NCBI GenBank assembly: GCA_047602885.1
Contig: JBLKOQ010000001.1
Location: forward strand, 10,016-74,015
Length of the DNA stretch: 64,000 nt
Origin: Candidatus Woesearchaeota archaeon
GTDB lineage: Archaea > Nanobdellota > Nanobdellia > Woesearchaeales > WAPJ01
Reading direction: 5' to 3'
Each line of letters begins with the position of its first letter. The first letter of the stretch is position 1. Positions 8,288 to 57,361 of this stretch are shown here, in pieces. The position numbers and the translations under genes are program-made. The notes under the pieces are model-generated. The model was given only the letters and a program-made list of their open reading frames with translations. It did not search any database and was not told the origin of the DNA.

Positions 8288-8288
8288 A

Positions 8289-9143: not shown

Positions 9144-9152
9144 GATGATACT

Positions 9153-41400: not shown

Positions 41401-44400
41401 GAACCGATTTCGGGTTCGGGGAACGATTGTGAGATCCAATTTGATACTGGGAGCGGGTATGGGAGTTTTATAGAGATGGAATTTAACGCAACAAGTAACT
41501 TGTACGAGTACAACACCACATTTGGATCTGCAGGGACGTTCAGTTATAACGTGAGTTGCACTAGCACCCAAGGATATGAGAACCTGAGCGTGACTAATGA
41601 GTTCACATACAATCCTGCAAACTGTTTTGACAATTCGACGAGTCCTATACCAATTTGTACATGTACTGATCTTAGCAGGATGTGGGAGAACCTTACAGCA
41701 AACTATGAATTGCAGAATAATATAGACTGTAGTGATACTATTAATTGGAATGATGATGAGGGATGGCTGCCTGTAGGGACAACAGGTACGGGTTTTAGTG
41801 GTACGCTGGATGGGCAGGGATATAATATTACTGACTTGTTCATTGCTCGAAATAATGTTGGTTATCAAGGTTTGTTTGGTCAGTTAACTACAGGAGGAAG
41901 CATTACTGATTTAGGTTTGGTGAATGCGAATATCACCATAAAAGACACACTCAGTATAGTGACTCCATATATTGGGATTCTTGTAGGATATATCGATGGA
42001 GGCAGTGTCTCTGGATCTTATGTCACAAATAGTATTCTCTATAGTGATTTTCCCTCTACTGGTGGTCTTATAGGAGAAATGAGTGGTGGTAGTGTTGTCT
42101 CATCTTCTTTTGTTAGTGGTTCTAGTGTTTCTTCTTCTACTAGTAATGTTGGTGGTCTTATAGGAAGAATGAGTGGTGGTAGTGTGTCATCTTCTTATAC
42201 GGTGGATTCTAGTGTTTCTTCTACTGGTAGTAGTGTTGGTGGTCTTGTAGGATATATGCTGAGTGGTAGTGTTGTTTCATCGTCTTATACTATTGGTTCT
42301 AATGTTTCTTCTACTAGTACTCGGGTTGGTGGTCTCGTAGGAAGAATGTGGAGTGGTTCTAGTATTGTTGATTCTTACAGTACTAGTAATGTTTATGCTC
42401 TTGCAGGAGAAAACTTACAATATCATGGTGGACTAGTAGGACAAAACTATAGGGGAGTGATAAACAATTCTTATAGTACAGGAATAGTTAATAGTACACA
42501 TGATGATAGTGGTGGTTTTGTAGGAAGCGTAGATACAGGAGCTGCGACTTATGGTATGTATGGTAACTTCTGGGATAACCAGACAAGCGGTCGTAGTACT
42601 AGTGCTGGTGATAATGTAACAGGACTTACTACAGCGCAGATGTATAATATCAGTCAGTTCTTAGCGGCAGATTGGAATATTAGTGAGATTAGCGGTTATA
42701 ATAATGAGACTTGGTTTATTGATGATGGTAATGATTATCCTAGATTATGGTTTGAGTTTGATCTTGCTTTATTGGATATTGAGTCTGTAGGCATTATTCC
42801 AAGTCCTTTTGCTTTGGATGATGAGAATCTCGTAGGGTATTGTAGTGCTACTGGTAGTGAGAATTTTACGAGGTTGGATTATTTGTGGTATAAGGATGAT
42901 GTAGTGGAGTATGGGGGTGCTTATTTCAAGGAAGGAAGTATTAGTGCTGGTGGGGAGTTTTCTTGTGGTGTTCGTGCTAATGATTCTCGTTTGTTGTGTT
43001 GGGGTGCTAATTTTGTTGGTAAGTTGGGTATTGGTAATACTACTCATATGTATAGTCCTGTTTTGGTTGATTCTTCTGATGCTTTTTTGAGTGTTTCTGT
43101 GGGTGTTTCTCATTCTTGTGGTGTTCGTGCTAATGATTCTCGTGTTTTGTGTTGGGGGCTAAATAGTGAGGGGCAGTTGGGTATTGGTAATACTACTGAT
43201 ATGTTTAGTCCTGTTTTGGTTGATTCTTCTGATGCTTTTTTGAGTGTTTCTTTAGGTAGTTTTCATTCTTGTGGTGTTCGTGCTAATGATTCTCGTGTTT
43301 TGTGCTGGGGTGGTAATATTTATGGTCAGTTGGGTGTTGGTAATACTACTGATATGTTTAGTCCTGTTTTGGTTGATTCTTCTGATGCTTTTTTGAGTGT
43401 TTCTTTAGGTAGTTTTCATTCTTGTGGTGTTCGTGCTAATGATTCTCGTGTTTTGTGTTGGGGTGGTAATTGGGTTGGTCAGTTGGGTGTTGGTAGCGCT
43501 GTTTATGATTCGTGTTTTGATGGTTATGAATATTACGATTGTAGTTTGAATCCTGTTTTGGTTGATTCTTCTGATGCTTTTTTGAGTGTTATGGTGGGTG
43601 TTTCTCATTCTTGTGGTGTTAGGGCGAGTGATTCTCGTTTGTTGTGTTGGGGTGCTAATGCTAATGGTCAGTTGGGTGTTGGTAATACTACTGATATGTT
43701 TAGTCCTGTTTTGGTTGATTCTTCTGATGCTTTTTTGAGTGTTGGTCTTGGTTTTGGACATTCTTGTGGTGTTAGGGCGAGTGATTCTCGTGTTTTGTGT
43801 TGGGGACGTAATTTTGGAGGTCAGTTGGGTGTTGGTAATACTACTAGTCCTATTATGGTTCCTGTTTTGGTTGATTCTTCTGATGCTTTTTTGAGTGTTG
43901 ATGGTGGTTTTGGTGGTGGTTTTGGTGAGCAGCATACGTGTGGTGTTCGTGCTGTTGATGGTCGTGTTTTGTGTTGGGGTGATGGTTCTTTTGGTGCTTT
44001 GGGAACAGGCAATACTAGTTCTCAGTTGAGTCCGACTCTTACTATTGATTCGAGCAGTTATCTTAGGGGGCTTTCTCCGCAGACGACTTATAATGTTTCT
44101 TTGATAGGGAGTGGGTTGACTAGTTTGGGGGAGGAGTGGAAGCTTAGTTGTCGCGCTGTAAATGTTACTAGTGCGGGGGATTTTGTTAATTCTACTGTTA
44201 CTACGATTGATGAGGGTGAAGAGGGTTTGGATTGTGGTGTTATCGATGAGCCTGGAGAGTATATTATGAATGGCGACCTTGCGGCTACCGGAACTTGTAT
44301 TACTATTAATGTTAGTGATGTTTCATTAGATTGTCAGGGTCATACGATCAACTACTCTACAAACGATGACGAGGGCTACGGTATCCTGATATGGAGCCAG

Positions 44401-47400
44401 AGCGGGACGGTCGAAAACGTGAGTATCGCGAACTGTAACATCATCAAAGAGAGTCCTGGAGGGAGCTCAGGGAGTAGGCGCCCAGCTATCCTCGGATACG
44501 GCTACTCAGGTACTCCTTCAGGAGGTTTCACAAAATCAGGTGATGAGCATACTGTTGAGCAAGTAAATATATCGAACGTTACTATCACGACCGAGGGAGA
44601 TTATGCTCGAGGCATATTTGTCTTAAGTGGTCATACTTGGAGTGTCGAAGATGTCTCTATCACAACGTATGGAGATGATGCCCGAGGAATCTACAGCGAG
44701 AACTCTGATCATTGGAGTCTCAGGAGAGTTGATATCACGACCTTTGGAACTGTAGGGATAGGACTGTATACGATCGATGCAAACCACTACTATCTCAAGG
44801 ACATCGATATCACTGCTGCGAGCGCAGGCATGTGGATCCGCACGGGAAGTTCGAACTGGCGGGCAGAGAACATTTCGATAAATGCTACGCTTCAAGGTAT
44901 CGCGACATCGGACGGAGGTATGGCTCACATGAGTTTTTACAACTCTACGATCCACTCATCAGGAAGCCGGGGATTAGATACCAATCAAGGTACAGATAAC
45001 ATCAGCTTCTACGATTCTATTATCACCGCTCCATCAAGTGACGATGTATACATGCGTCTTGGTGATGCGAGTCGGCGTGTTACGTTCGTCAACGTGACTT
45101 TCAACCCTTCCAGTGTCACGTTCCATGACTCGACCTCAGGATTCCTCGACGTTGGATGGTACGTCGACTTTCTCGTAAACGATACTCTAAGTTATCGAGT
45201 TGAGAATGCTAATATTAGTTGGCAGGATTCTGGTGTTATGAGCAGTTTGAACCCTAACAGTACTGGTTGGAAATTAACTGATAGTGGTGGATTGTCTCTA
45301 AGAAATATATTGTATGAGTACTCGCAGAACCAAACTGCTAGGTACTATCATACTAACTATAGCTTCGACATAAGTAGCCCATCATACGCTTCCCTTGTTG
45401 GAGCGTCTAGGAACTTCACTACAAATACACAATTGGATTTTACTATAGAGCCATTGTCGTTGGAGTGTGGTGTTATTAGCGAGCCTGGCTCTTATGTTAT
45501 GACTACTAATCTTACTGCTACAGGCACGTGTTTCACTATTAATGTTAGTGATGTAATACTGGATTGTCAGGATTATACTATTAATTATTCGACTGCTGAT
45601 GAGGGTTATGGTATTTTGATTTGGAGTCAGTCTTCTAATGTGGATAATGTTACGATACAGAACTGTGTTGTTGTGCAGGGTTCTGGTGAGGGTGATGTGA
45701 ATAGTGCGCGTCCTGGTATTTTGGGTTGGGGTGTTAATAATGGTCCGAGTGGTGGTTTGTCGAGTGTTAGTGGTATTTTTTATGAGGTTACTAATGTTTT
45801 GGTTGTGGATTCTAGTATAGTAACATTGGGTGATCGTTCGGATGCTATTAGGGGTGCGGTTTCGTATGACTGGGATGTTGTGGGTGTGAATGTTTCTACT
45901 GCTGGTCAGCTTGCTTCGGGTGTTTTTGGTACTTTTACGGGGGGTTGGTTGTTGTCTGGTGTTGATTCTTTTACTACCGGTGATAATTCTAGGGGTTTTG
46001 CTAGTTGGGATTCTGTTGATTGGGAGATTGTGGATTCTCGTTCTGAGGTTACTACTTTTTATTCTTATCCTATTCGTGCTGAGGAGGGTTCTCATGGATG
46101 GGTTCTGTCCAATGTTTCTCTTATCTCTGATGGTTTTGAGTCTGATGGGCTTCATGTGATTGATTCGGATAATTGGATGGTTGAGGGTCTTTTTGTTTCA
46201 TCATCGGGCACTCAGGCTGATGCTTTTTATTTAGAGGATTCTGATGGTTGGATGGTTTATGATTCTGATTTGTCTAGTGGGTCTGCGTTTGATGTTGTTC
46301 TTAATCTTAGTGATTCTTCGTATCGTGTTGGTTTTGTGAATACGAGTTTTGATCATTCTAGCGTGTCTCTTCTTACTCCGGGCTGGCTTGATAGGGGTTG
46401 GTGGGTGGATGCGTATGTGAATGATAGTCTTGGCAGTCCTGTAGAGGATGCTAATGTCTCTTGGAATGATGCTGGTATTATTAGTGGGAATCCTAGTAGT
46501 AGTGGTTGGAATGTTACTGATGATAGTGGACTTAGTGTTAGGAATGTCTTGTTTGAATATTCTGAGAATCAAACTGCGAGATATTATAATACTAATTATA
46601 CTATTAATGTTAGTCATGAGGATTATGATGATCTTATAGGAGAGTCAAGGAATTTTACGGGTAATACGCAGTTGAACTTTACTTTTTTGGGTGAGTCTTT
46701 AGAGTGCGGTGTTATTAGTGAGCCTGGCGAGTATGTTATGACTTCTGACTTGTCTGCTGCTGGTACTTGTTTTACTATTAATGTTTCTGATGTTAGTTTG
46801 GATTGTGGGGGTCATACGATTAACTATAGTACTGGTGAGGAGGGTTATGGTATTTTGATTTGGAGCCAGGGTGGGTTGGTTGAGAATGTGAATGTTAGTA
46901 ATTGTAATATTGTTAAGGATAGTGAGGAAGGTAATAGTTCGAGTCTTAGGCCTGCCTTACTTGTTTATGGTCGTAGTGCTGTTCCTAGTGGTTCTATTAG
47001 TGGTATTGCGGGTACTGCTCATTATGTAGATAATGTGTCTATTAATAATGTTAATGCTAGTAGTAAGGGAAATTATAGTAGTGGGATTTTTATAGTGCGA
47101 GGATGGTATTCTTCTATTAGTAATGTTATGGTTGATACTGATGGTAATTGGAGTTTTGGGATATGGGGCGATTACTCTTCTTATTGGAATATTTATAATA
47201 CTAGTATTTTTTCGTTAGGGCTGTTTAATGTTGGTCTGTATGGGGTGGATTCTAATTTTTGGGTTTTAGATAGTTTAAATGTAGATGTTGAGTTCAATGA
47301 TGGTCATGGTATTATTGGTTTTCGGTCAAATTCTTGGATTCTTTATAATGTTACTGTTATTGCTGACGGTTCTACAGTTAGGGGAATATCTCTATGGGAT

Positions 47401-48882
47401 CTTAATAACTGGACTGTTATAGACTCTTTTATTGATAGTACTTTTTATGATATTAATATGGAGTTAGATCATAGTACTCGTCAAGCTTTTTTTATTAATA
47501 CAAGCTTTAATAAGAGTAGTGTGTATTTTACTAATGCTAATGCTGGTTGGCTTAATCGTGGTTGGTGGGTTGATTCGTATGTTAATGATACTATAGGGAA
47601 TCCAATTAGTGGTGCTAATGTGAGTTGGGTGGATAATGGTAGTCTTGCAAGCAATCCTTCTGCTAGTGGTTATAGTTTGACTTTGGTTGATGGGACGGTG
47701 AGGAATGCCATATTCGAATATTCTCAGAACCAGACTCATACGTTTGAGCATAATAATTATACTTTTAATGCGAGCAAGGAAGGATTCTTACATAGTGATA
47801 TTGTTCAAAATATAACTGATAATGCCTTCATTTACTTTACATTAGAAACCGATGACATTGATCCTCCGACATGGTCTGATCCTTGGGATAACAGTACTGA
47901 TACTAGCCCTAGGATTAATGAGAATATAAGGATGAACTTAACACTAAACGATGATGTTGACTTGTTCAGCTATACTTTTAGTTGGAATGGTACTGGTTCA
48001 TGGACTAATGATAGTATACAGTTAATATCAGGCACAGAGCATATTTTAAGCGTTATTAAGCAAGTAGGATTGCCTAGAGACAATACTATAGGATGGAGAG
48101 TATACTTTAATGACAGTGCAGAAAAGACAAACATCTCTGATATATTCACATTCACTGTAAAGAACACTCCTCCTGATGTTCCTATACTAAATTATCCTCT
48201 AAACGACAGTGATATTTACAATAGAACGCCATTATTCAACTGGACGGGATTCGATGCAGACTCTGATGAATTAACATACAACCTCACGATATACTGCATA
48301 GGAGGATGCAGTGCTGACAACAGGCATTATCAAGGAATAACAACTAACGAATTCCAGCTTGAAGAAGAACTCCAGTTCCTATACGATGACGGATACTCAT
48401 ACTTGTGGAGCGTTAATGCATGCGACCAATATGAATGCTCAGAATACTCCCAAAACAACACGTTCACTCTCTCAAGCCTCTTATCAGTCAGATTCACACA
48501 AAACGATTCGGACTTCGGCATGATGCAGCTCGGACAAACCAATAGTACTGAGGATAACAGCCCAAACCCTCTTGTACTGGTAAACGAAGGAAACGTAAAA
48601 GTAAATATTAGCTTCTACGCCCAAACCCCGTTATTTGAAAGAGCTGCACTGCCAAGCCCATTCTTTGAGGCAAGAATAAGGCCATTAATAGGAAATTATG
48701 GCATAGACACTAATACGAGCTGGTTTGACCTGGACGATTCAGAAAACCCTGCTCACATGCTAAGAAAACTAAATTATACAACAGACAATAATGCCACTAT
48801 AGACTTAAGAGTAACAGTTCCTATAGACGAGCCTCCAGCAGAGAGGAGCAGTACTATTACAGCAATGGTGGTGATGTCATGA
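35422..48882 (+). CDS. giant secreted multidomain surface protein (4486 aa): signal anchor, S8 subtilase, RCC1 block 1, ALK-like glycine-rich domain, RCC1 block 2, GLUG repeats, RCC1 block 3, three tandem beta-helix modules, fn3-like C-terminus
   Basis: Uninterrupted 13.46-kb ORF; apparent TTG start (in-frame stop just upstream). Catalytic triad motifs IVDTG / HGHGT / GTSMSVPFVSAAAG. More than 20 copies of an HSCG(I/V)RANDSRVLCWG...G.LG.G motif. Three about 410-aa modules each starting L(D/E)CGVI(D/S)EPG.Y(I/V)M. Confidence 0.85.
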   Translation: MGLKQVVVQVTIVVVIIAALIFTFFSIGEPTITGYAVFESSVSNVSYDVERVVLPQETYTIQLEDNVVVRGIVINGYYIASKDSSIIARLDEGTISHELRLRSNVITGMAIGAGEVESGMIEEDLANRTLLRYGDGPYDIDNDGMVGRQGAVDYYVETNASCVLWSIVGDDVDLFCQGTIECCDSYLLESMDDNPNYLVLDRQRAGADRGEVLAKADGYDFSRMLPYDFTGAEERLVRLDDVCLGSCNVRMQSSSIRIESSAYLHIDRIIVYYDDLPDDEIFDTEDGNIIEEVLPEKRVIREEMIEYIVYESEGGIIGRTVSELKSHYGLSRASERSAKIFSMDYEHISEEEETEYTEGINAHIIRVSSELLNLVTEESVRIIILNESGIYSEYANNLSELNEILHSKEVITASIDRQIELLTQDTLNASGFISVYNEYEVSGSGVRVCIVDTGVSGHVVENISYTGVNVLDGTDDIMDYHGHGTLVSYPLIRALPDAHYVIVKALDDTGIGYESDVISGLDACAEHDVDVVSLSIGAGLYDGYCDTNLVSERVNELVSEGVLVVSAAGNEAGPYLKAPSCASSALAVIAYTDDSLWYQSSYLEGHAVFAAPGVVETIGPDGSVVLSSGTSMSVPFVSAAAGLLVEYTNDTGLVLRNRLVGTGDLLGDEFLFSRLNVSRAFSGEITNELLYNISEGVEVEGTVYYRGTSFIAGTITTGNGHSCGIRAVDGRVLCWGRNNVGQIGDGTTAGPRTNPTLTTDTSAYTFISSGEQHSCGIRANDSRVLCWGSNGNGVLGDGTTVQRENPTLINDSSAYLTLGLGQGHSCGIRANDSRVLCWGWNGNGRLGDGTDEARWNPTLTSDTSAYSGITAGAHYSCGIRANDSRVLCWGTNNYGQLGDGTDVVRWNPTLTSDTSAYLHVSGGGWHSCGIRASDSRVLCWGRNNVGQIGDGTTTTPRLNPTLTTNTSAHGTVSAGNDYSCGIRVNDSRVLCWGANDYGRLGDGTTTGPRTNPTLTADSSAYVAVSAGDWHTCGIRSYDGRVLCWGYNEFGQIGDGTTTTPRQNPTLTSNMAPFAEIPWVFTTCEATGRTGPTQGMCDDAYEYSYLNNSVTVSSGIQSWTVPETGWYNVTAVGAQGGYGGRTGVGGYGALISGAFYFEEGETINVLVGQKGGDNSFRPAGGGGSAVWKDTGTELLIVAGGGGAYAVGTTTTYQDRAHASNTTSGKDGFGATAQSVGGTGGLGGAGTGNRASGGGGWFTDGGQGTTADSRGRSLSGGGLGGGGAVADGGFGGGGATDSTTTWGAASGGGGYSGGGGGYSNTNDAEGAGGGGGSYNSGLFQYNVGGENADHGLVIIEPYGDVSLLTVGVTPSPEANATDDLLGYCTSDVIDGFDRIDYEWRRDGIVEYMGTYFRADTITAHEAHTCGIRANDSRVLCWGRAGSGEIGNGSKLPQVLNPTLTSDTDPYLQVSVGFTHSCGIRYDGRVLCWGNNAEGQLGTNDTTERLVPTLIADDAAYHSLSAGYRMNCAIRANDSRVLCWGDNVFSQLGSGGGSVSVPRLINDTASYLMVSTYKYHACGIRANDSRVLCWGMNWYGQGGNGTTDEFVSSETPTLTTDSSPYVMVTTGASHTCGIRASDSRVLCWGRNNNGQLGIGSSGTNVGNPTTTSDSSAYHYIDAGWQFSCGIRSSDNRGLCWGDNGEDKLGIGTTGNRENPTLISASFAISLITAGERHGCVVRSSNGRVYCWGQTAEGRTGDGVGIGTEHTPTLTTDTSSYAYLPAIASGVQYNLSTLDSTITNGGDSWTFSCRITDGRTTYPYEESATITIANIIPIYSKFDGSTTNFSDASVVPDLSSVSNPILEISTFGRITWKGMVNVPSSDYDSHVHIGYRYIFVNSSALHSSHDSGSNLSFYDTGFVHAPVILKDSSVCEQPLCNMTGFVDGYVNYSVAGFSNYTLDSNSRLEIWDGTDPQGGNNSYEVGESVPFYANYSNLTSGEPISGSGNDCEIQFDTGSGYGSFIEMEFNATSNLYEYNTTFGSAGTFSYNVSCTSTQGYENLSVTNEFTYNPANCFDNSTSPIPICTCTDLSRMWENLTANYELQNNIDCSDTINWNDDEGWLPVGTTGTGFSGTLDGQGYNITDLFIARNNVGYQGLFGQLTTGGSITDLGLVNANITIKDTLSIVTPYIGILVGYIDGGSVSGSYVTNSILYSDFPSTGGLIGEMSGGSVVSSSFVSGSSVSSSTSNVGGLIGRMSGGSVSSSYTVDSSVSSTGSSVGGLVGYMLSGSVVSSSYTIGSNVSSTSTRVGGLVGRMWSGSSIVDSYSTSNVYALAGENLQYHGGLVGQNYRGVINNSYSTGIVNSTHDDSGGFVGSVDTGAATYGMYGNFWDNQTSGRSTSAGDNVTGLTTAQMYNISQFLAADWNISEISGYNNETWFIDDGNDYPRLWFEFDLALLDIESVGIIPSPFALDDENLVGYCSATGSENFTRLDYLWYKDDVVEYGGAYFKEGSISAGGEFSCGVRANDSRLLCWGANFVGKLGIGNTTHMYSPVLVDSSDAFLSVSVGVSHSCGVRANDSRVLCWGLNSEGQLGIGNTTDMFSPVLVDSSDAFLSVSLGSFHSCGVRANDSRVLCWGGNIYGQLGVGNTTDMFSPVLVDSSDAFLSVSLGSFHSCGVRANDSRVLCWGGNWVGQLGVGSAVYDSCFDGYEYYDCSLNPVLVDSSDAFLSVMVGVSHSCGVRASDSRLLCWGANANGQLGVGNTTDMFSPVLVDSSDAFLSVGLGFGHSCGVRASDSRVLCWGRNFGGQLGVGNTTSPIMVPVLVDSSDAFLSVDGGFGGGFGEQHTCGVRAVDGRVLCWGDGSFGALGTGNTSSQLSPTLTIDSSSYLRGLSPQTTYNVSLIGSGLTSLGEEWKLSCRAVNVTSAGDFVNSTVTTIDEGEEGLDCGVIDEPGEYIMNGDLAATGTCITINVSDVSLDCQGHTINYSTNDDEGYGILIWSQSGTVENVSIANCNIIKESPGGSSGSRRPAILGYGYSGTPSGGFTKSGDEHTVEQVNISNVTITTEGDYARGIFVLSGHTWSVEDVSITTYGDDARGIYSENSDHWSLRRVDITTFGTVGIGLYTIDANHYYLKDIDITAASAGMWIRTGSSNWRAENISINATLQGIATSDGGMAHMSFYNSTIHSSGSRGLDTNQGTDNISFYDSIITAPSSDDVYMRLGDASRRVTFVNVTFNPSSVTFHDSTSGFLDVGWYVDFLVNDTLSYRVENANISWQDSGVMSSLNPNSTGWKLTDSGGLSLRNILYEYSQNQTARYYHTNYSFDISSPSYASLVGASRNFTTNTQLDFTIEPLSLECGVISEPGSYVMTTNLTATGTCFTINVSDVILDCQDYTINYSTADEGYGILIWSQSSNVDNVTIQNCVVVQGSGEGDVNSARPGILGWGVNNGPSGGLSSVSGIFYEVTNVLVVDSSIVTLGDRSDAIRGAVSYDWDVVGVNVSTAGQLASGVFGTFTGGWLLSGVDSFTTGDNSRGFASWDSVDWEIVDSRSEVTTFYSYPIRAEEGSHGWVLSNVSLISDGFESDGLHVIDSDNWMVEGLFVSSSGTQADAFYLEDSDGWMVYDSDLSSGSAFDVVLNLSDSSYRVGFVNTSFDHSSVSLLTPGWLDRGWWVDAYVNDSLGSPVEDANVSWNDAGIISGNPSSSGWNVTDDSGLSVRNVLFEYSENQTARYYNTNYTINVSHEDYDDLIGESRNFTGNTQLNFTFLGESLECGVISEPGEYVMTSDLSAAGTCFTINVSDVSLDCGGHTINYSTGEEGYGILIWSQGGLVENVNVSNCNIVKDSEEGNSSSLRPALLVYGRSAVPSGSISGIAGTAHYVDNVSINNVNASSKGNYSSGIFIVRGWYSSISNVMVDTDGNWSFGIWGDYSSYWNIYNTSIFSLGLFNVGLYGVDSNFWVLDSLNVDVEFNDGHGIIGFRSNSWILYNVTVIADGSTVRGISLWDLNNWTVIDSFIDSTFYDINMELDHSTRQAFFINTSFNKSSVYFTNANAGWLNRGWWVDSYVNDTIGNPISGANVSWVDNGSLASNPSASGYSLTLVDGTVRNAIFEYSQNQTHTFEHNNYTFNASKEGFLHSDIVQNITDNAFIYFTLETDDIDPPTWSDPWDNSTDTSPRINENIRMNLTLNDDVDLFSYTFSWNGTGSWTNDSIQLISGTEHILSVIKQVGLPRDNTIGWRVYFNDSAEKTNISDIFTFTVKNTPPDVPILNYPLNDSDIYNRTPLFNWTGFDADSDELTYNLTIYCIGGCSADNRHYQGITTNEFQLEEELQFLYDDGYSYLWSVNACDQYECSEYSQNNTFTLSSLLSVRFTQNDSDFGMMQLGQTNSTEDNSPNPLVLVNEGNVKVNISFYAQTPLFERAALPSPFFEARIRPLIGNYGIDTNTSWFDLDDSENPAHMLRKLNYTTDNNATIDLRVTVPIDEPPAERSSTITAMVVMS
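36700..37450 (+). other. subtilisin-like S8 peptidase domain within the giant protein
   Basis: Asp near 36775 (CIVDTG), His at 36868-36870 (HGHGT), Ser at 37312-37314 (GTSMS). Confidence 0.7.
37560..38620 (+). repeat. RCC1 block 1: seven tandem about 150-156-bp repeats (CATTCGTGTGGTATTCGTGCTAATGATTCTCGTGTTTTGTGCTGGGGT core), CGT/GGT/GTT codon regime
   Basis: Core recurs at 37582, 37738, 37891, 38041, 38206, 38352, 38509. Confidence 0.75.
38740..39500 (+). other. glycine-rich domain resembling the ALK/LTK-type glycine-rich domain (Pfam Gly_rich-like): VLVGQKGG ... LLIVAGGGGAY plus poly-Gly tracts
   Basis: Motifs INVLVGQKGGD, GGGGSAVW, LLIVAGGGGAYA, multiple GGGG(Y/S); GC-richer codon regime. 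Confidence 0.45.
39530..40740 (+). other. RCC1 block 2 (about 8 repeats) preceded by a linker homologous to the one before block 3; GC-richer codon regime
   Basis: Repeats HTCGIRANDSRVLCWG ...; linker VTPSPEANATDDLLGYCTSD ... parallels IIPSPFALDDENLVGYCSAT ... at 42790. Confidence 0.6.
41790..42750 (+). other. GLUG-motif repeat region (GGL(I/V)G(R/E/Y)M(S/L/W)GGSV ... x6)
   Basis: Repeated VGGLIGRMSGGSVSSS-type units about 25 aa long; opening GTLDGQGYNITDLF is typical of GLUG domains. Confidence 0.5.
42950..44010 (+). repeat. RCC1 block 3: seven tandem about 153-180-bp repeats; units at 43216-43371 and 43372-43527 are nearly identical
   Basis: CATTCTTGTGGTGTTCGTGC core at 42958, 43111, 43264, 43426, 43606, 43759, 43934; GATTCTTCTGATGCTTTTTTGAGTGTT recurs 6 times. 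Confidence 0.75.
44200..47830 (+). other. three tandem about 1.2-kb homologous modules (A 44200-45430, B 45430-46690, C 46690-47830) with right-handed beta-helix (pectate-lyase-like) character
   Basis: Each begins L(D/E)CGVI(D/S)EPG(E/S)Y(I/V)M ... TINVSDV(S/I)LDC(Q/G)(G/D)(H/Y)TINYST ... EGYGILIWSQ and ends ... ARYY(H/N)TNY. Module A is in the GC-richer regime, B and C in the GT-rich regime. Confidence 0.55.
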
Positions 48883-50057
48883 AAAAAGCACTGCTATTGC
48901 TGATAATACTATTAACTGCAATCATGATAATAGAAGAATCAGTAGCATTCGGAGTGAGTCCAGGCAGAAAACAGTATGACTACCAGCCACAACTAGACGG
49001 TTACATAAACATCATAAACAGCCATAAGGAATCAGGAGAACTCATAATAGTCGCTAGAGGAGAATTATCAGAATACGTAATATTCAGCGAAAGGACAATA
49101 AAACTGGATCCCAACGTCCACGAAAATAGGGTTCATTATACTGTAAGAGTGCCCCAAGACAAGTTAGAGCCAGGCTCCAACGAAATAGATGTTTATATAA
49201 TGCCGATGACATTCGATACAGACCAGTCCACAGTATCAGCGCAGGCAGGAATAATCTTTAGAATAATAGTAAACCTTCCTTACGACGGGGCTCATGCTAC
49301 AGGAAGAATAGACTATAACAGCAGAACTAACACCATAATAATACCCGTAACAAATGTAGGAACACAAAGAATAGAAGATGCAAGAGCATCAGTAAGCATT
49401 ATAGGGCCTACAGGAGATATCATATCATCAAAATCGTCATCATCCAAAACCATAGGAATAAGAGAAACCATAGAATACAACATACCTTTAGATGGCATTA
49501 GCAACGGGCATTATCTTGCAAGAGCAACCATAGAATATGACAATAAAATACTAGTAATAGAAAGGAATATAGCGGTGGGAACAGCATTAATAGCAGTGCA
49601 ATCGATAGAAATGCCTGAATTCAGGTATGGTCATATAAATAGGATAGACATTAACGTAAAGAGCGAGTGGAACCAAGTAATAGAGGACGCTTATGCCATG
49701 ATAGAAATAATAGGACCTGCAGGAACACTAATAGAAAGGATAAAAACACCAGGAGAAAGAATAGAGCCTTACAGGACAAGCATACTAAGAGGATACTGGG
49801 ACACTGCAGGAATAACTCCAGGAGACCACCAGATAATAGCCACAGCAGTAGGAGAAGGAGGAAATGATACCAAAAGAACCATGGTTACCATAACCCCTAC
49901 AGGAATAGTAATGCAACAGCCTACAGGAAGAGTCGCAGGAGAAGGGGGGATGGGAATACTAGGAGTAGCACTCGCATTCCTGATAATAGCAAACATTATA
50001 CTGTTTGCGATAATACTATCAGGAAGAAACAAAAACAAAAAGAATAAAAAGCAGTAA
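48879..50057 (+). CDS. secreted protein with C-terminal TM anchor and basic tail, translationally coupled to the giant gene
   Basis: ATGA overlap with the giant ORF stop; N-terminal signal; C-terminal GMGILGVALAFLIIANIILFAIILSGRNKNKKNKKQ. Confidence 0.55.
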   Translation: MKKALLLLIILLTAIMIIEESVAFGVSPGRKQYDYQPQLDGYINIINSHKESGELIIVARGELSEYVIFSERTIKLDPNVHENRVHYTVRVPQDKLEPGSNEIDVYIMPMTFDTDQSTVSAQAGIIFRIIVNLPYDGAHATGRIDYNSRTNTIIIPVTNVGTQRIEDARASVSIIGPTGDIISSKSSSSKTIGIRETIEYNIPLDGISNGHYLARATIEYDNKILVIERNIAVGTALIAVQSIEMPEFRYGHINRIDINVKSEWNQVIEDAYAMIEIIGPAGTLIERIKTPGERIEPYRTSILRGYWDTAGITPGDHQIIATAVGEGGNDTKRTMVTITPTGIVMQQPTGRVAGEGGMGILGVALAFLIIANIILFAIILSGRNKNKKNKKQ

Positions 50058-50073
50058 CCAAAAAGGCATTATA

Positions 50074-50346
50074 ATGGTAGCAAATAAGACTACTAAAGCA
50101 AAAAAAACAACCAAAAAGAAGGTAGTGCATCCTAAGCCATATTCCGACCTCACGTTCTACCAGAAGAAGATGAGAGAAGAAATAAGAAAACTGCATGACG
50201 CTACAGAAACATTCGTAAGAATAGCAGTAAACAAGACGGCAAAAGAAAACAAGATACACGAGATAGAAGAACACATACTAGAGATAGGAAGAAATATTGA
50301 CGAACTAGAAGACCTACTGCATGATATTAGCAAGGGGAAAGTATGA
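50074..50346 (+). CDS. small lysine-rich helical protein (paralog A)
   Basis: 90 aa, KKTTKKK N-terminus, shares an (I/L)RKLH(D/K) core with the next ORF. Confidence 0.4.
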   Translation: MVANKTTKAKKTTKKKVVHPKPYSDLTFYQKKMREEIRKLHDATETFVRIAVNKTAKENKIHEIEEHILEIGRNIDELEDLLHDISKGKV

Positions 50347-50606
50347 TGACAACAAGAAAGAAAAGCAGGACAATAAGCAAGACTAAGAGCAGAAAAAGAA
50401 CTGTTGCTAATAAGAAGGATCAGGACATTACTATAGCATTAAGAAAGCTCCATAAGGACATGGAAGACAGTCTAAAAAGGATGGAGTCACTAATAGGAAA
50501 GATAGAGGATGACAAAGCCAAGCCAAAAATAAAGAAAGCCATAACAAGGTTTCATAAGAAACAAAAAGAACAATTAACAAAAGTAGTGAAAACAACAAAA
50601 AAATGA
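50343..50606 (+). CDS. small lysine-rich helical protein (paralog B)
   Basis: 87 aa, 4-nt overlap with paralog A, LRKLHKDMEDSL core, K-rich both ends. Confidence 0.4.
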   Translation: MMTTRKKSRTISKTKSRKRTVANKKDQDITIALRKLHKDMEDSLKRMESLIGKIEDDKAKPKIKKAITRFHKKQKEQLTKVVKTTKK

Positions 50607-50987
50607 TTATTCATTCCGAAGTATACCATCCATAACAGTTCTTAAGTCCTCGCCATTATAGATAAATGCTCCTTCTCTCAAGCCCATATTAGCATCTCTT
50701 GCGAGCTTCTTAGCTGTTATCATATCGCCAGTATTGTAATGGCTAATAGCCTTTAATCCCATAATGCACGAGCGATGGTCCTCCAAAGAGCGTATCTTCT
50801 CTACGAGAGCATTACCAACCCTTGGGGGAAGATCGATATCACTAGCAGCATCCCTTAAAGTCTCTATAGCCCTATAATAATCGTCAGGCGTTCTTCTCAT
50901 CTCGAAACCAATAGATTGGCTGTACCTGTCCCCAAAATCAACATCCTTAACGGCATACGTCCTTAATATGTTCTCATATTCTTTCAT
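50607..50987 (-). CDS. hypothetical protein
   Basis: 126-aa ORF with native composition; no motif recognised. Confidence 0.35.
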   Translation of the reverse strand: MKEYENILRTYAVKDVDFGDRYSQSIGFEMRRTPDDYYRAIETLRDAASDIDLPPRVGNALVEKIRSLEDHRSCIMGLKAISHYNTGDMITAKKLARDANMGLREGAFIYNGEDLRTVMDGILRNE

Positions 50988-51073
50988 AATACCACCTTAT
51001 AATAGCAATGAGATACTAGTATAAATTAGTAACGCTTATAAAACCGTTCTGCCGAATAATAGTAGATGATAAT

Positions 51074-51568
51074 ATGACCAAAATAATAGTAATGCTAGCA
51101 ATAATATTATTGGCTGTAGGGGCATGCCAGTCAGAAGAGCCCCCAACACAGGACACTACAGTGCCAGTAGACACTACTAATGATAATGACCTGCAAGAAG
51201 AACATGATGATAGTGATGAATATTATGACTGGGATGATTATGAAGACTGGGAAGAATACGACAATTACTGGGATGACGATTGGGATGACGAATACGAATA
51301 CTATGACTACGATGAATATGATTATGAGGATTACATCACAATAGAAGAGCTCTCAACACATAATACCCTTGATGATTGCTGGATAGCATACGAAGGAGAA
51401 GTCTATGACATAACACTATACTTATCAAGACATCCTGGAGGGGCAGGGGCAATAATCCCATACTGCGGGACAGCAGGAGAGTTTGAAGAAGCCTTTGACG
51501 GCCAGCATGGTCCAACTCAGTACCAAACACTATTAAGAGAAGCAGTATTTGTAGGAATGCTAGTATGA
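51074..51568 (+). CDS. secreted cytochrome b5-like heme-binding domain protein with an extreme Asp/Glu/Tyr/Trp-rich tract
   Basis: Signal peptide; acidic-aromatic tract DDSDEYYDWDDYEDWEEYDNYWDDDWDDEYEYYDYDEYDYEDY; cyt-b5 motif AYEGEVYDITLYLSRHPGG. Confidence 0.55.
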   Translation: MTKIIVMLAIILLAVGACQSEEPPTQDTTVPVDTTNDNDLQEEHDDSDEYYDWDDYEDWEEYDNYWDDDWDDEYEYYDYDEYDYEDYITIEELSTHNTLDDCWIAYEGEVYDITLYLSRHPGGAGAIIPYCGTAGEFEEAFDGQHGPTQYQTLLREAVFVGMLV

Positions 51569-51999
51569 TAATACTAAGAACATTAGGCGAAAAACTGGAA
51601 TACTATTCCAAAGCAGTATTAAGGATAGGAATATCAATAGTATTCTTATGGTTGGGAGTATTGCAGTTAACTGACAGCCAATTATGGAAAGAATATGTTC
51701 CTGACATAATAATAGGAATAATCGCCAATCCAGAATTACTAGTGGTCATTAACGGAACAGTCCACATAGTACTAGGCACACTATTATTGGCAGGAGGATT
51801 CACTAGAATAACAGCGTGGGCATTATCAGCAAACCTAATAATAATATTATTAGGGATAGGATATGACATTATAGGAATACTAACACTCGGAATGCTCGCA
51901 GGAACAATAAGCATAGCAATGACAAGTAACGATCCTCTAAGAATAGACAATAGGATAAGACTATTCAGAAAAAAGAAAGATCCTATAAGCTTCGACTAG
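51565..51999 (+). CDS. DoxX-like small membrane protein (4 TM)
   Basis: 144 aa, 4 TM topology; 4-nt overlap with the cyt b5-like gene. Confidence 0.4.
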   Translation: MIILRTLGEKLEYYSKAVLRIGISIVFLWLGVLQLTDSQLWKEYVPDIIIGIIANPELLVVINGTVHIVLGTLLLAGGFTRITAWALSANLIIILLGIGYDIIGILTLGMLAGTISIAMTSNDPLRIDNRIRLFRKKKDPISFD

Positions 52000-52784
52000 T
52001 ATGATATATCAAAGAGTATAGGATAATGGTCTGACGCCCAGTTGGTATGCTTGTCTTTAGGAACAATCCCAGATAATACTTTAATATCCTTGGATACAAA
52101 CAAGTGGTCTATCCTAATCCCAGACTTCTTATTAATACTAGCATAATCTGTAGGAATAGTATAAGTCCTATTCATCCTGGGCATGGCATCCCTAAGACCA
52201 TAACGCCTAAGCATAGGAATAAGCTTAGGACTTAACAGCTCTTCAGCCTTCCTCTCAGGCTCATGATTGGCAAGAGAATAAAAAGCATCTATAATAGCAT
52301 TAATATCGTACTTGTCATGGTCTGAAACGGCATTAAAATCTCCCGTAATAATATAAGGATGTTTCTTAGCCTTCATAAGAGGTCTTACACTCTCGGCTCT
52401 CACAGACTCACTGATATTAGGAGAGGCATGATATACGTCAACATACAACTTCTTCCTCCCAGTCCTAACCATCCCAGTAATAGCAGTCCTGTCAACAAGC
52501 TTGATTACACGAGCATCTATAGGATAACGAGACAATAAGCAAGAGCCCCACTCATGGTCCCCCCAAAAGCCAAAAAAACCATGTTCGTAACCAAATATCC
52601 TCTGATAGTCCACATATATTCCAGTATGATTATAACCTCCATAACAAGCCTCGCATAATACCAGTATGTCAGGATTATGTATTCTTACAGCTTTTTTGGC
52701 ATGGTTAAGCCTAGCCCTGTCAAGAATATGCTCATTAGAATGAAACCCGTGCAGTATATTATAAGTCATTATCCTAATCTTCAT
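51996..52784 (-). CDS. endonuclease/exonuclease/phosphatase (EEP) family protein
   Basis: N-terminal IMTYNILHGF, C-terminal SDHYPILFDI motifs. Confidence 0.7.
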   Translation of the reverse strand: MKIRIMTYNILHGFHSNEHILDRARLNHAKKAVRIHNPDILVLCEACYGGYNHTGIYVDYQRIFGYEHGFFGFWGDHEWGSCLLSRYPIDARVIKLVDRTAITGMVRTGRKKLYVDVYHASPNISESVRAESVRPLMKAKKHPYIITGDFNAVSDHDKYDINAIIDAFYSLANHEPERKAEELLSPKLIPMLRRYGLRDAMPRMNRTYTIPTDYASINKKSGIRIDHLFVSKDIKVLSGIVPKDKHTNWASDHYPILFDISY

Positions 52785-53987: not shown

Positions 53988-54737
53988 TCAGTTATCCTGA
54001 GGATTATTAATCTCATTAGCATAACGCTGATGAGCGGCAATAGCCATCCTTTCATACTTGTCACGCTCGTCACTAGTCTCAGCATTCTGCATCCTATAAT
54101 TATAATAGTCAATCTGCATCCTAAAAACATCCTCTTCAGAATCAATATAAGCTGAATGTGCTTTCTCATGGTCGTATACGAACTCCACTGCTTCATCATC
54201 ATAAAGCCCATGAGCACGGGCAAAATATGGGATTATAGCATCATAATTCTCGTTAGCAATAATAATGCCTTCACGCTCATTCCTCCTAATAGCAGCCACT
54301 ACTTTAGGACCGAGAGTAGCGGATGATACGCCCTTAATCTCCACAGTATCCAATCCTTTACTGTCAAGATATTCTTCAAAAATCCTGCCAGGACCACTCA
54401 TATAATCATTATAAGAGGTTGATACTGCTTCTACTTCATTGTCTCTCTCAACAATATCATCAACACTTACAGTACCACTACTATAATACTCTTTGGTACC
54501 ATCATTATACTTTATTGCTTCAGCATAAGGAATAGTACTGTTAGTAAAATAATGATTTATTGTATCATCATTATTAGGAACAACATAAACAGAATATCTT
54601 CCCAAAACATTATCAATATTCTCTTTGGTACTCATAATATATGATTCCATACTTGAAATCACACTGATAATCCGCTCTAACATGAAACATGTCGATACAA
54701 TGTTATTAAAAAACTTTACGATATTAGGATTAGTCAC
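53988..54737 (-). CDS. hypothetical protein with a C-terminal HExxH (HEKAH) motif, a possible minimal zincin-like hydrolase; true start probably an internal Met
   Basis: 249-aa ORF; FVYDHEKAHSAYIDSEED near the C-terminus; 4-nt overlap with the P-type ATPase gene. Confidence 0.3.
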   Translation of the reverse strand: MTNPNIVKFFNNIVSTCFMLERIISVISSMESYIMSTKENIDNVLGRYSVYVVPNNDDTINHYFTNSTIPYAEAIKYNDGTKEYYSSGTVSVDDIVERDNEVEAVSTSYNDYMSGPGRIFEEYLDSKGLDTVEIKGVSSATLGPKVVAAIRRNEREGIIIANENYDAIIPYFARAHGLYDDEAVEFVYDHEKAHSAYIDSEEDVFRMQIDYYNYRMQNAETSDERDKYERMAIAAHQRYANEINNPQDN

Positions 54738-57361
54738 TCATCAAAGTCTAAATAGCGATACTTGTTATTGAGATACTTTATGATATCAAATATGAGTATC
54801 ATCATCATAGCAAGACCTATAGGAACAAGCCAGTATAATATTGGTACTGGCAGCGTTTCAAAAACGGGGTTAAGAGCAGGAATATATACTATTGATATGA
54901 GCAACAACAATGACAGAGTACTAGTGCCTACAAGGTAAGGGTTTACGAAAGGACTCCTGTTAAGCACTCCCTTCCTAAAACTCCTAAAGATAAATGCTTT
55001 TCCAAGGCCCATTATTACTATGGTCATAAGAGCCATTGTTCTTGCAAACTCTAAAGAGGCTCCACGCTCATTAATAAGATAGTTGAACACTAATAGAGGG
55101 CCTACAGTCATAATAATACCCGCAACTAATATCAGTATAATAAGATCCTTATTTAATATAAAACTCTTCTTTCTCGGCTTTACCTTCATAATATCATCAG
55201 ACGACTTGTTAAAACCAAGAGTAATAGCATTAACCTCATCAGACAATAAGTTCATGAACAGTATCTGGAGTGCAATAAGAGGCAAAGGAAGATTAAGCAT
55301 TACAGAAACAAATATTAATGATAGCTGTGCAATATTGGTTGATATCTGGAAAGAAGTAAACTTACGAATATTATTAAATATTGTCCGTCCTTCCTCTACA
55401 CTGCATACTATAGTAGCAAAATTATCATCCTTAAGAGTAATATCCGCTACTTCTCTAGTAACATCAGTGCCATTCTTTCCCATAGCAATACCAATATGGG
55501 ACTCTTTTAGTGCAGGAGCATCATTAACACCATCACCAGTCATAGCCACTATCTCACCAGTACTCTTAAGATTCTTAACAATCCTAAGCTTATGCTCTGG
55601 TTTGACACGTGCAAAAACGCCTGCCTTAACTAATACTTTAGACAATTCCTCTTCAGTCATGTCATCAATCTCAAAGCCCTCAAGCACATTGCCCTTAATC
55701 CCAATCTCCCTTGCTATTGCCTTAGCAGTCTCCTTATTATCACCTGTAAGCATTATTACTCTGATGCCCGCAGTATCGCACTGCTTAATACTATTCTTAA
55801 CCTCTGGCCTGGGAGGGTCTTCAAGACCCAATATTCCTATTAATACTAGTTTTTCTTCAAAAGAAGCCTTCGTTTTGGACACTGATTTTTTATATGCTAC
55901 TGCAATAGTCCTATAGCCCTGAGTAGTAAGGGATTCATTGGCTTTCATAATAGCCTTCCTCTCAGCCTGAGATAATTTATCAATCCTGCTACCCTTATAA
56001 TGATGAGTACAATGAGGAAGTACAAATTCCAATGCTCCTTTAGTATAAACATAATAATCGGACTTTTCTTTAGTCAATACTGACATCATCTTCCTATGGC
56101 TGTTGAAAGGAATTTCTTCTTTGCGAACAGCATTAATATCCTCCAAATATATGTTGGCTTTAGCTCCCAGTATCATCAATGCTCCTTCAGTAGGAGAGCC
56201 TATAACATGATATTCGTCAATATCTTCACTGCGCTCTATTTTGGAATCATTGCATAATACTGATGCTTTGATAAGAAGATGAAGGTGACTGGTAGGCTTA
56301 ATATCAACATTCTTCCTGTTATGCAAGAATCTTCCTTCAGAAGAAAACCCTGCTCCTTCCACATCATAAAACTTATAGTCGCTCCAAATCTTCTTGACAG
56401 TCATCTCACCCCTGGTAAGAGTGCCTGTCTTATCAGTGCATATAACTGTAGCTTCTCCTAAAGCCTCTATTACAGACATCCTATTAACTATGGCATTCTT
56501 TACAGCCATCCTACGAGCGCCAGCAGCAAGAGTCGTAATAAGCACCACAGGAAGGCCTTCAGGAATGCTCGCTACGCTAATAGCAATAACCACTATTAAT
56601 ATTTCTATAAGTTCGGGTGCAATCCACTCTACCCTGGTAAGCATAGTTATACCTGTAAGAAATGATACTGATAGCGCTATAATAGCAAGATATTTAGTTA
56701 ATAAGTTGACCTTCTTTTGCAACGGAAGCTCTTTCTCGGCAGTTCCTATAAGATCAGCTATTTTTCCGAACTCTGTATCCATACCAGTCTTTAGAACTCT
56801 GGCTGTAGCCCTACCATTAACAATATAAGTGCCCATAAAAATATGGTTTTCTGGCTTTTCCTTCTTCTTATAAGCAGTCTTCCTAATCTCCTTAGACTCC
56901 CCTGTAAGAACAGCCTCATTAAGCCTCAATTCCTTCTCATCCAATACTACGCAGTCGGCAGGAACCCTCTCGCCGGTCCTCAACATTACAATATCACCAG
57001 GAACTAATAGTCTGGATTCTACCTCTTTTTGCTTACCATCCCTAAGCACTACAGTCTTGGGCATAATCATGCTCTTTAACGCTTTAATAGACTGCTCAGC
57101 CCTATACTCCTGAAAGAATCCCACACCAATAACTATTAGTATCACAACGACCAAAGCCCATCCTGTAAGCTGCTTTTCAGGAACAAGAAAAGATATTATC
57201 ATAGCAAAAGTAAGAAGGTAGACCATGCTGTTCTTCTTAACCTGCCTAAATAGTATTTTTAGGGGGCTTACCTTCAATACTTCCTGCAACTCATTAGGAC
57301 CATGCTCTTCTAAGAGCTTATCAGCCTCTCTACTAGTAAGACCCCGTAACACCATTAACAA
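54734..57361 (-). CDS. P-type cation-transporting ATPase, P2 (SERCA/PMCA-like, Ca2+/Mg2+-type)
   Basis: DKTGTLT phosphorylation site, PEGLP, TGDNKETAKAIA, GDGVNDAPAL, 10 TM; 875 aa. Confidence 0.9.
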   Translation of the reverse strand: MLMVLRGLTSREADKLLEEHGPNELQEVLKVSPLKILFRQVKKNSMVYLLTFAMIISFLVPEKQLTGWALVVVILIVIGVGFFQEYRAEQSIKALKSMIMPKTVVLRDGKQKEVESRLLVPGDIVMLRTGERVPADCVVLDEKELRLNEAVLTGESKEIRKTAYKKKEKPENHIFMGTYIVNGRATARVLKTGMDTEFGKIADLIGTAEKELPLQKKVNLLTKYLAIIALSVSFLTGITMLTRVEWIAPELIEILIVVIAISVASIPEGLPVVLITTLAAGARRMAVKNAIVNRMSVIEALGEATVICTDKTGTLTRGEMTVKKIWSDYKFYDVEGAGFSSEGRFLHNRKNVDIKPTSHLHLLIKASVLCNDSKIERSEDIDEYHVIGSPTEGALMILGAKANIYLEDINAVRKEEIPFNSHRKMMSVLTKEKSDYYVYTKGALEFVLPHCTHHYKGSRIDKLSQAERKAIMKANESLTTQGYRTIAVAYKKSVSKTKASFEEKLVLIGILGLEDPPRPEVKNSIKQCDTAGIRVIMLTGDNKETAKAIAREIGIKGNVLEGFEIDDMTEEELSKVLVKAGVFARVKPEHKLRIVKNLKSTGEIVAMTGDGVNDAPALKESHIGIAMGKNGTDVTREVADITLKDDNFATIVCSVEEGRTIFNNIRKFTSFQISTNIAQLSLIFVSVMLNLPLPLIALQILFMNLLSDEVNAITLGFNKSSDDIMKVKPRKKSFILNKDLIILILVAGIIMTVGPLLVFNYLINERGASLEFARTMALMTIVIMGLGKAFIFRSFRKGVLNRSPFVNPYLVGTSTLSLLLLISIVYIPALNPVFETLPVPILYWLVPIGLAMMMILIFDIIKYLNNKYRYLDFDE

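Follow-up and report, generated by a model that had tools for sequence, protein, structure and literature searches.

A two-gene locus for a putatively anchored cytochrome b5 and a DoxX-family membrane protein in a woesearchaeotal genome: a candidate cell-surface redox module

The Locus and Its Two Genes

The locus described here lies in a stretch of 64 kb of DNA (hereafter the window, the whole of the sequence analysed, whose coordinates are used throughout) from a metagenome-assembled genome (MAG) of Candidatus Woesearchaeota, and consists of two open reading frames (ORFs), ORF1 for a cytochrome b5 protein and ORF2 for a membrane protein of the DoxX family. Both products have exact matches at NCBI, that of ORF1 in a Woesearchaeota MAG under the name ‘cytochrome b5 domain-containing protein’ and that of ORF2 as ‘DoxX family membrane protein’. 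The features of the pair are the following.

51074-51568, + strand: ORF1, gene of the cytochrome b5 predicted lipoprotein, 164 aa (ORF, NCBI match, Pfam)
51074-51127, + strand: predicted signal peptide with lipobox, MTKIIVMLAIILLAVGA followed by Cys18 (sequence inspection)
51128-51205, + strand: polar and acidic linker QSEEPPTQDTTVPVDTTNDNDLQEEH, aa 19-44 (low model confidence, no secondary structure)
51206-51334, + strand: acidic-aromatic tract DDSDEYYDWDDYEDWEEYDNYWDDDWDDEYEYYDYDEYDYEDY, aa 45-87 (composition, P value, repeats, predicted disorder)
51335-51565, + strand: cytochrome b5 haem-binding domain, aa 88-164 (Pfam, PDB matches, AlphaFold2, Foldseek)
51565-51999, + strand: ORF2, gene of the DoxX-family protein with four transmembrane (TM) helices, 144 aa (Pfam, AlphaFold2, hydropathy)

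The two genes share the tetranucleotide ATGA at 51565-51568, the 4-nt overlap that an earlier note on this DNA, made from the letters alone, had reported, and this overlap indicates that ORF2 is translationally coupled to the b5 gene. The same arrangement, with the overlap retained, is found in a relative that is 78% identical (L003), and the ratios of nonsynonymous to synonymous substitution rates (dN/dS) between the two, 0.37 for ORF1 and 0.12 for ORF2, indicate purifying selection on both genes, which is strong on DoxX. The reading that we consider somewhat likelier to be right than wrong is that the two genes form an operon encoding a redox module of the cell surface, in which a tethered b5 has DoxX as its membrane redox partner. 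In the following we present the evidence on each protein and on their pairing, and weigh the other readings where the evidence touches them.

The Cytochrome b5 and Its Predicted Anchor

The N-terminus of ORF1, MTK-IIVMLAIILLAVGA-C18, shows a positively charged n-region, a hydrophobic h-region and a lipobox, LAVGA-C18, recognised by inspection against the pattern [LVI][ASTVIG][GAS]C; the lipobox is also present in the homolog P0002, and the AlphaFold2 model of ORF1 has a hydrophobic helix at aa 2-16. Since the N-terminus ends in a lipobox, the b5 is taken to be membrane-tethered rather than freely secreted, and the mature protein is predicted to be lipid-anchored at Cys18 on the outer face of the membrane and not released. 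Of the secreted protein described in the earlier note the signal peptide therefore stands, whereas free secretion gives way to a predicted membrane-tethered lipoprotein. Between the anchor and the globular domain, aa 19-87 are modelled with no secondary structure and with a predicted local distance difference test score (pLDDT) of only 57-67.

The domain that follows is matched by the Pfam Cyt-b5 profile (PF00173) with 60.2 bits against a cut-off of 23.7 (E = 2.1e-16), over aa 89-163 and profile positions 1-73 of 74. The axial ligands are His120 in HPGG (51431-51433) and His145 in GQHG (51506-51508), both of which align with the histidines of 3lf5. C102, Y111, H120, P121, G122, G123 and C131 show no variation among 64 b5 homologs, and H145 is conserved in at least 90%. 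The best sequence matches in the PDB are 3lf5 (the b5 domain of Ncb5or) and 1cxy (Ectothiorhodospira b558), both at E ~1e-12; the domain is modelled with a pLDDT of ~95, and the best 50 matches of this model in a Foldseek search of the PDB are all b5 domains, with a target-normalised TM-score of ~0.78 and a root-mean-square deviation (rmsd) of 1.8 Å. By sequence and predicted fold, aa 88-164 is a bona fide cytochrome b5 domain, to which bis-histidine binding of haem b can be ascribed conditionally. The HPGG b5 domain recognised in the earlier note is thus upheld by the profile, by both conserved ligands and by a predicted fold that agrees with solved b5 structures; the failure in profile searches or lack of histidine ligands that the note had named as counting against it did not occur.

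Among the closest known systems, the b558 of Ectothiorhodospira vacuolata (1cxy; E 3e-12 by sequence, Foldseek TM-score 0.78) is, like the window protein, an exported prokaryotic b5 with an equivalent of HPGG and the same two cysteines (DDCW...WCG), and because this cysteine pair matches that of periplasmic bacterial b5 the window domain is read as extracytoplasmic, probably with a Cys102-Cys131 disulfide. Unlike the window protein, b558 is free in the periplasm; it lacks both a lipid anchor and a long low-complexity tether, and no DoxX partner has been described for it. The eukaryotic b5 and Ncb5or domains (1cyo, 3lf5) share the fold and the bis-histidine ligands, 3lf5 being the best match in both structure and sequence (38% identity, rmsd 1.8 Å over 79 residues), and microsomal b5 is also flexibly tethered to a membrane. 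They differ in that the tether is a C-terminal TM helix rather than an N-terminal lipid, in that the window domain lies outside the cell, and in the partner, a flavoprotein reductase or P450 in eukaryotes and DoxX here.

One alternative is that the b5-like domain captures haem or another ligand, with no redox function, at the surface of a haem-auxotrophic symbiont, DoxX being its receptor or handover partner. The b5 family is concentrated in bacteria of the Candidate Phyla Radiation (CPR) and in DPANN archaea (Diapherotrites, Parvarchaeota, Aenigmarchaeota, Nanoarchaeota and Nanohaloarchaeota), lineages that are generally considered unable to make haem. Moreover, the b5 fold includes binders of haem or steroids with no redox role, of the type of membrane-associated progesterone receptors (MAPR; Pfam family description). 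A MAPR-type assignment was rejected, since MAPR proteins are without the axial histidines, whereas here both are present and conserved, as one typically sees in electron carriers; among solved structures the nearest relatives are redox b5 domains, the pairings of the family with NOX-type reductases and those of DoxX with cupredoxins, described below, are electron-transfer contexts, and DoxX is not a known transporter. We regard ligand capture as quite unlikely, and retain the redox reading.

The DoxX-Family Protein

ORF2 is assigned by the Pfam DoxX profile (PF07681) with 31.0 bits against a cut-off of 23.6 (E = 4.1e-7). Its AlphaFold2 model (pLDDT 93.5, predicted TM-score 0.83) shows four TM helices, at 2-36, 56-76, 80-98 and 102-119, and two short helices in loop 1; four helices are also found by hydropathy, so that the DoxX-like neighbour with four TM helices proposed in the earlier note is well founded. 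The N- and C-termini are rich in lysine and arginine, for which reason both would lie in the cytoplasm and the conserved loop 1 (W..YVP) would face outward. An exhaustive HMMER search seeded with the window DoxX over 1.84 billion representatives, at E 1e-3 or better, returned 333 representatives of the subfamily, most of them of 120-150 aa, to which the window protein is related with 37-39% identity (E ~1e-18). In the PDB the model has only non-significant matches, NACHO/TMEM35A (TM-score ~0.6, E = 0.6) and the membrane domain of the vitamin-K gamma-carboxylase (E >1), which are leads at most.

Conserved Pairing and Natural Fusions

The chief new finding, that the pairing is conserved, comes from comparison. 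In seven CPR-type bacterial or metagenomic lineages, a survey from the b5 side, carried out in GTDB species genomes, in JGI metagenomes and by context look-ups of exact proteins, found that the next gene after a homologous b5, 2-131 nt away and in the same orientation, codes for a homolog of the window DoxX.

b5-then-DoxX loci, same strand: L006/L018, L007 (Paceibacterota), L014 (Nomurabacteria), L015, L023, L070, L072

In L012 (Saccharibacteria) both are parts of one polypeptide of 743 aa, in which DoxX leads through a fifth TM helix to three b5 domains, with an immunoglobulin domain and a weakly cupredoxin-like C-terminus after them. In the HMMER search described above, which started independently from the DoxX side, the hits of at least 345 aa are all (five out of five: P0146, P0150, P0165, P0191 and P0240) fusions of DoxX, a TM helix and one or two b5 domains, which with L012 brings the natural fusions to six. 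Because of the fifth TM helix, the b5 domains of the fusions would lie on the side of the membrane opposite to the cytoplasmic termini of DoxX, in agreement with the export signal on the window b5.

The pairing is far from general. Most metagenomic b5 loci of other subclades are without DoxX, by which a universal linkage of the two families was rejected, and a conserved third gene after DoxX was likewise discarded, as the ORFs of 121-158 aa at that place in L014, L015 and L072 are mutually unrelated. The earlier note had proposed a look at b5-DoxX co-occurrence in archaea: the pair does recur, mainly in CPR bacteria, whereas in archaea it was found only in the lineage of the window, with a second DPANN DoxX that stands next to a cupredoxin. 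Overall, the gene order and fusions indicate that the b5-DoxX pairing is conserved and meaningful, though clade-restricted, and conserved adjacency together with natural fusions gives strong comparative support to the small extracytoplasmic electron-transfer module that the earlier note had suggested.

Alternative Partners of Both Families

The partners that each family has in the other's absence point in the same direction. The b5 family comprises 288 matches at E 1e-5 or better, mostly from CPR bacteria and of 120-140 aa, built of an N-terminal anchor, a low-complexity linker and the b5 domain. In two loci (L037, L071) the gene immediately before that of a near-identical CPR b5 encodes a NOX/ferric-reductase-type transmembrane NAD(P)H oxidoreductase, while proteins with two TM helices, of PepSY_TM/DUF4405/b561-like type, are found downstream of b5 in four others (L053, L009, L004 and L010). 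DoxX homologs without b5 adjoin cupredoxins in a Nanoarchaeia archaeon (L073) and in a Lloydbacteria bacterium (L074).

L037 1018-2328 and L071 618-1985: NOX/ferric-reductase-type partners of b5 (Ferric_reduct, FAD_binding_8, NAD_binding_1)
L053 3171-3485 and L009 3651-3986: PepSY_TM/DUF4405/b561-like partners of b5
L026 1982-2728: b5 fused to a DUF2231 membrane domain
L073 1-1124 and L074 2501-3529: DoxX homologs with cupredoxins

The two cupredoxins are homologous (38% identity); that of L074 is full-length with an N-terminal membrane anchor, and that of L073, which carries a CuA-like motif, CSVFCGRGHSTM, is cut off at the contig end. In L070 a convergent gene for an NDH-2-type NADH:quinone oxidoreductase lies beside DoxX. 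Near the cupredoxin pairs there are also an ArsR/TrmB-type regulator (L073) and MsrA (L074).

The common theme is a small outward redox domain, tethered wherever the N-terminus can be read, together with a small membrane redox protein, and it is because both families show such pairs that electron exchange between DoxX and b5 is proposed. By analogy, the arrangement in L037 and L071 suggests that b5 is the outward-facing electron acceptor of a membrane reductase, and DoxX may fill the slot that the NOX-type reductase has there. Unlike the NOX/FRE-type reductases, DoxX has no pairs of haem ligands and no flavin or NAD domains, and electron transport across the membrane in the manner of NOX is beyond DoxX alone.

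The Acidic-Aromatic Tract

The most striking feature of ORF1 is the tract at aa 45-87, made of 17 D, 12 Y, 8 E, 4 W, 1 S and 1 N, with a net charge of -25 and 16 aromatic residues. The earlier note had described 43 residues of D, E, Y and W only; the extreme acidic-aromatic character stands and the ‘only’ does not, as these four account for 41 of the 43. Against the background of D+E+Y+W in the proteins of the window (17.9%), a run of 43 residues with at least 41 of these has a per-position probability of 1.4e-28, and the tract is the sole one of its kind in the six frames of the window. An acidic proteome of the halophile type was rejected as its origin, since the window has only ~12% D+E and no other acidic tract.

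The DNA of the tract contains tandem units, an imperfect one of 18 nt (2.4 copies) and a perfect one of 12 nt (1.9 copies), and the tract of P0002 is without exactly 12 residues (EEYDNYWDDDWD), an in-frame indel; from the units and the indel it appears that the tract grows and shrinks through micro-duplication. The remaining changes with respect to L003 are Y to F and D to E, with 2 nonsynonymous and 3 synonymous substitutions, numbers too low to give a firm dN/dS. The linker at this position is uncharged and rich in T, S, P and N in the large majority of homologs, and most of the ~190 b5 family members surveyed have such linkers and no acidic tract; for this reason a flexible tether is the simplest reading, and the tract is best taken as an acidic form, specific to this lineage, of the low-complexity flexible tether of the family. 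Acidic or acidic-aromatic linkers and tails recur sporadically in distant relatives, namely in P0003 (DDDDDEYEEEHEDEDDEDEEWDDD), P0076 and L008, and as acidic C-terminal tails in P0005 (...GDDDEYEYEDD), P0191 (...GDDDEWDD) and L009/L010 (...RGDDDDDD). The tails of the ‘GGSGSHS’ b5 subclade (P0005, P0091, P0191, L009/L010, L046/L053) also include GRGDGEYEDEREDDD and EREEEDDD. The composition of the tract does look selected.

A second alternative holds that the tract is itself functional, either in binding divalent or trivalent cations (Ca2+ or Fe3+) or mineral, the former being close to what the earlier note had put forward, or as a wire for electron hopping through Tyr and Trp, so as to supply the b5 haem with metal or electrons. 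The extreme composition, the conservative nature of the substitutions with respect to L003, the recurrence of acidic or acidic-aromatic segments in P0003, P0076, L008, P0005 and P0191, and the pairing of some b5 relatives with ferric-reductase-type proteins all speak for it. Opposed to this are the uncharged linkers of most of the family, the difference of 12 residues in tract length between proteins that are 78% identical, with its micro-duplication origin, the predicted disorder, and substitution counts too small for a reliable dN/dS; in addition, a comparison of the tract with solved structures gave no match even at E up to 10, and no known metal-binding motif, solved homolog or solved analogue was found. 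We judge a function of the tract itself to be unlikely, and the binding of divalent cations or mineral, against which the linkers of the homologs, the predicted disorder and the variable length among close relatives count, is possible but unsupported.

In composition only, the tract resembles eukaryotic acidic activation domains, which are disordered, combine D and E with aromatic residues and bind their targets loosely (PMC8426559; bioRxiv 10.1101/2023.06.18.545482). These domains are nuclear and eukaryotic, whereas the tract lies outside an archaeal cell according to the predicted topology, and no homology was found. They and nanopore engineering were all that a search of the literature on ‘acidic-aromatic’ segments returned.

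A Proposed Surface Redox Module

The tether reading of the tract fits into a mechanism for the whole locus. The computations above identify the domains and ligand residues of the two proteins, their topology and the build of the operon, and show that the pair is conserved and at times fused; from there we infer a haem-loaded b5 that would be in contact with DoxX and exchange electrons with it. Gene 1 would give an exported b5, lipid-anchored at Cys18 and held outside the membrane by a disordered polyanionic tether of ~70 residues, whose domain would carry a bis-histidine haem b and a probable Cys102-Cys131 disulfide, as in periplasmic bacterial b5. Gene 2 would give a DoxX with four TM helices, both termini in the cytoplasm and loop 1 outward. 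As the partner embedded in the membrane, DoxX would pass electrons to and fro between the tethered b5 and a carrier that is lipophilic or membrane-associated and either quinone-like or thiol-based; the b5 in turn would donate electrons to, or accept them from, a substrate outside the cell, for instance in defence against oxidative stress, in envelope repair or in metal reduction. The tract would hold the haem domain in an extended and mobile state, and may add electrostatic docking.

Among better known systems, the DoxDA of Acidianus is a membrane quinone-linked thiosulfate:quinone oxidoreductase (TQO). The window subfamily has a distant sequence relation to DoxD (PF04173), on whose model several subfamily members and fusions score 22-29 bits; membership of the window protein in TQO/DoxD was rejected at 10.8 bits (E = 0.47) against a cut-off of 22.7. 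Unlike DoxDA, the window pair has no DoxA partner, no match to a DoxA-type family having been found among the neighbouring ORFs scanned, and shows no evidence for thiosulfate chemistry. The published chemistry of DoxX proteins lends loose support to the proposed mechanism: in Pseudomonas aeruginosa the DoxX domain of MexG is the part that binds a quinolone (PMC5477026), the DoxX of Mycobacterium tuberculosis is described, as cited in PMC7907618, as joining SodA and SseA in a thiol-oxidoreductase complex of the membrane, and DoxX genes occur in the copper-chelating bufferin/MNIO clusters (PMC12452194). The window DoxX resembles these in being a bundle of four TM helices beside an extracytoplasmic redox or metal-handling protein; it differs in belonging to a distinct CPR/DPANN subfamily, in having tethered b5 or cupredoxin partners, and in lacking genes for SodA/SseA, an RND pump or MNIO proteins.

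Several points weigh against the proposal. One concerns four polar residues of DoxX, which were compared across 60 members of the subfamily and 17 homologs linked to b5 or a cupredoxin. E67, H90, R106 and D107 are present in 87-97% of the subfamily and in all the b5- or cupredoxin-linked CPR homologs, and the DoxX of the window and that of L003 carry H67, N90, L106 and T107 in their place, a set of replacements confined to these two among the proteins compared; N90 is likewise found in a second DPANN homolog, P0130. If the polar residues form an active or cofactor site, the archaeal DoxX may work differently or only as a scaffold. It is a divergent member of the subfamily and may have a modified site. 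These four substitutions are also what favours a third alternative, in which the pair is a relic in this archaeon, DoxX having lost its chemistry for a scaffolding or unrelated role and b5 using another partner. The relic reading is at odds with the dN/dS of 0.12 for DoxX and the 4-nt overlap kept in L003, and the remaining conserved residues of the scaffold (R20, W29, G31, Q34, P46, N63, G64, G77, R81 and G99) are intact; furthermore, a histidine was gained at 67, in TM2, as that at 90, in TM3, was lost, which may represent the relocation of a functional residue. We hold the relic to be improbable.

As for the other objections to a redox module, many b5 family members have no DoxX neighbour, among them P0003 (Minisyncoccia), the closest non-archaeal relative of the window b5. 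The composition of the tract may matter beyond simple spacing, because its substitutions are few and conservative and acidic tails recur in distant homologs. DPANN archaea and CPR bacteria are generally thought to be without haem and quinone biosynthesis, so that both cofactors would need to be scavenged, and the biochemistry of DoxX is itself poorly defined. No haem or quinone biosynthesis genes were recognisable in the window.

Genomic Surroundings

Upstream of ORF1 there is a block of 27 nt that is identical in the window and L003, in intergenic sequence that otherwise diverges between the two. Owing to its position ~30 nt 5' of the ATG, the block is likely to be an archaeal promoter region, for both the b5-DoxX operon and the divergent gene upstream. 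The locus is closed downstream by a convergent gene.

51018-51044, + strand: upstream block AGTATAAATTAGTAACGCTTATAAAAC with two TATA-like boxes, 27/27 nt identical in L003
50607-50987, divergent: gene upstream of b5, no family match
51996-52784, - strand: convergent Exo_endo_phos gene (Pfam)

Genes of the Exo_endo_phos family are also found near b5 in L016 (2888-3754, - strand) and L069 (3032-3733, - strand), the three lineages, namely the window archaeon, Tessaracoccus and one CPR bacterium, being mutually unrelated. A conserved link with b5 was rejected: the three proteins are not orthologous and their similarity is at the level of the superfamily only (BLASTP E 0.001 or weaker), for which reason the convergence is probably a coincidence.

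Just upstream of 50607-50987 two small overlapping ORFs, 50074-50346 (+ strand, 90 aa) and 50343-50606 (+ strand, 87 aa), encode very lysine-rich, coiled-coil-like products with weak Pfam matches. They are preceded by a giant ORF of 4486 aa (35422-48882, + strand), made mostly of RCC1-like beta-propeller repeats (WD40_RLD 533 bits, 17 RCC1 repeats), and by an ORF of 392 aa (48879-50057, + strand) with a signal peptide, a C-terminal TM helix, a KNKKNKKQ tail and no Pfam match; these two probably represent a DPANN surface protein of giant size and its partner. Further away, a cluster of four genes at 6001-9932 (+ strand), for a phytoene desaturase-like protein (Amino_oxidase), an SQS_PSY phytoene synthase, a UbiA prenyltransferase and a CruF-like Caroten_synth protein, resembles the C50/bacterioruberin-type pathways of carotenoid synthesis and is unexpected in a Woesearchaeote.

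Regarding redox and metal functions, the window also contains a peroxiredoxin gene and, 33 kb from the b5 gene, an FNR-type flavoprotein of 241 aa (17178-17903, - strand; FAD_binding_6 and NAD_binding_1), of the superfamily shared with cytochrome b5 reductases, but cytoplasmic and unlinked. A type-II P-type cation ATPase (Cation_ATPase_N/C; 54734-57361, - strand) and a CorA Mg2+ channel (59842-60918, - strand) are encoded within 9 kb downstream of the locus, and no link from either to the acidic tract was established.

Concluding Remarks

The usual picture of CPR bacteria and DPANN archaea is one of symbionts that live by fermentation and have hardly any membrane electron transport, or none. 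Searches of the literature for DoxX with cytochrome b5, or for b5 with CPR, Patescibacteria, DPANN or Woesearchaeota, gave nothing relevant; taken individually the two genes are ordinary members of known families, and the module of a tethered b5 and DoxX in CPR and DPANN lineages appears to be undescribed in the literature searched. A broader and more speculative proposal, to which we give a low likelihood, is that tethered b5 with DoxX, and cupredoxin with DoxX, represent an unrecognised minimal surface redox module characteristic of ultra-small episymbionts, namely CPR bacteria and part of the DPANN archaea, to which the polyanionic, Tyr/Trp-rich tether of the window protein would add docking, cation binding or electron hopping. 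If true, organisms without a respiratory chain would swap electrons with the outside, the host quinone pool, extracellular metals and the detoxification of oxidants being possible uses.

The pairing would be a concrete candidate for surface redox chemistry in CPR and DPANN organisms. For the DoxX family, of which little is understood, it would supply a definite protein partner, and the natural fusions offer a ready-made construct for biochemistry. The acidic-aromatic tether is an unusual and compact case of an archaeal surface protein carrying a low-complexity segment that looks selected.

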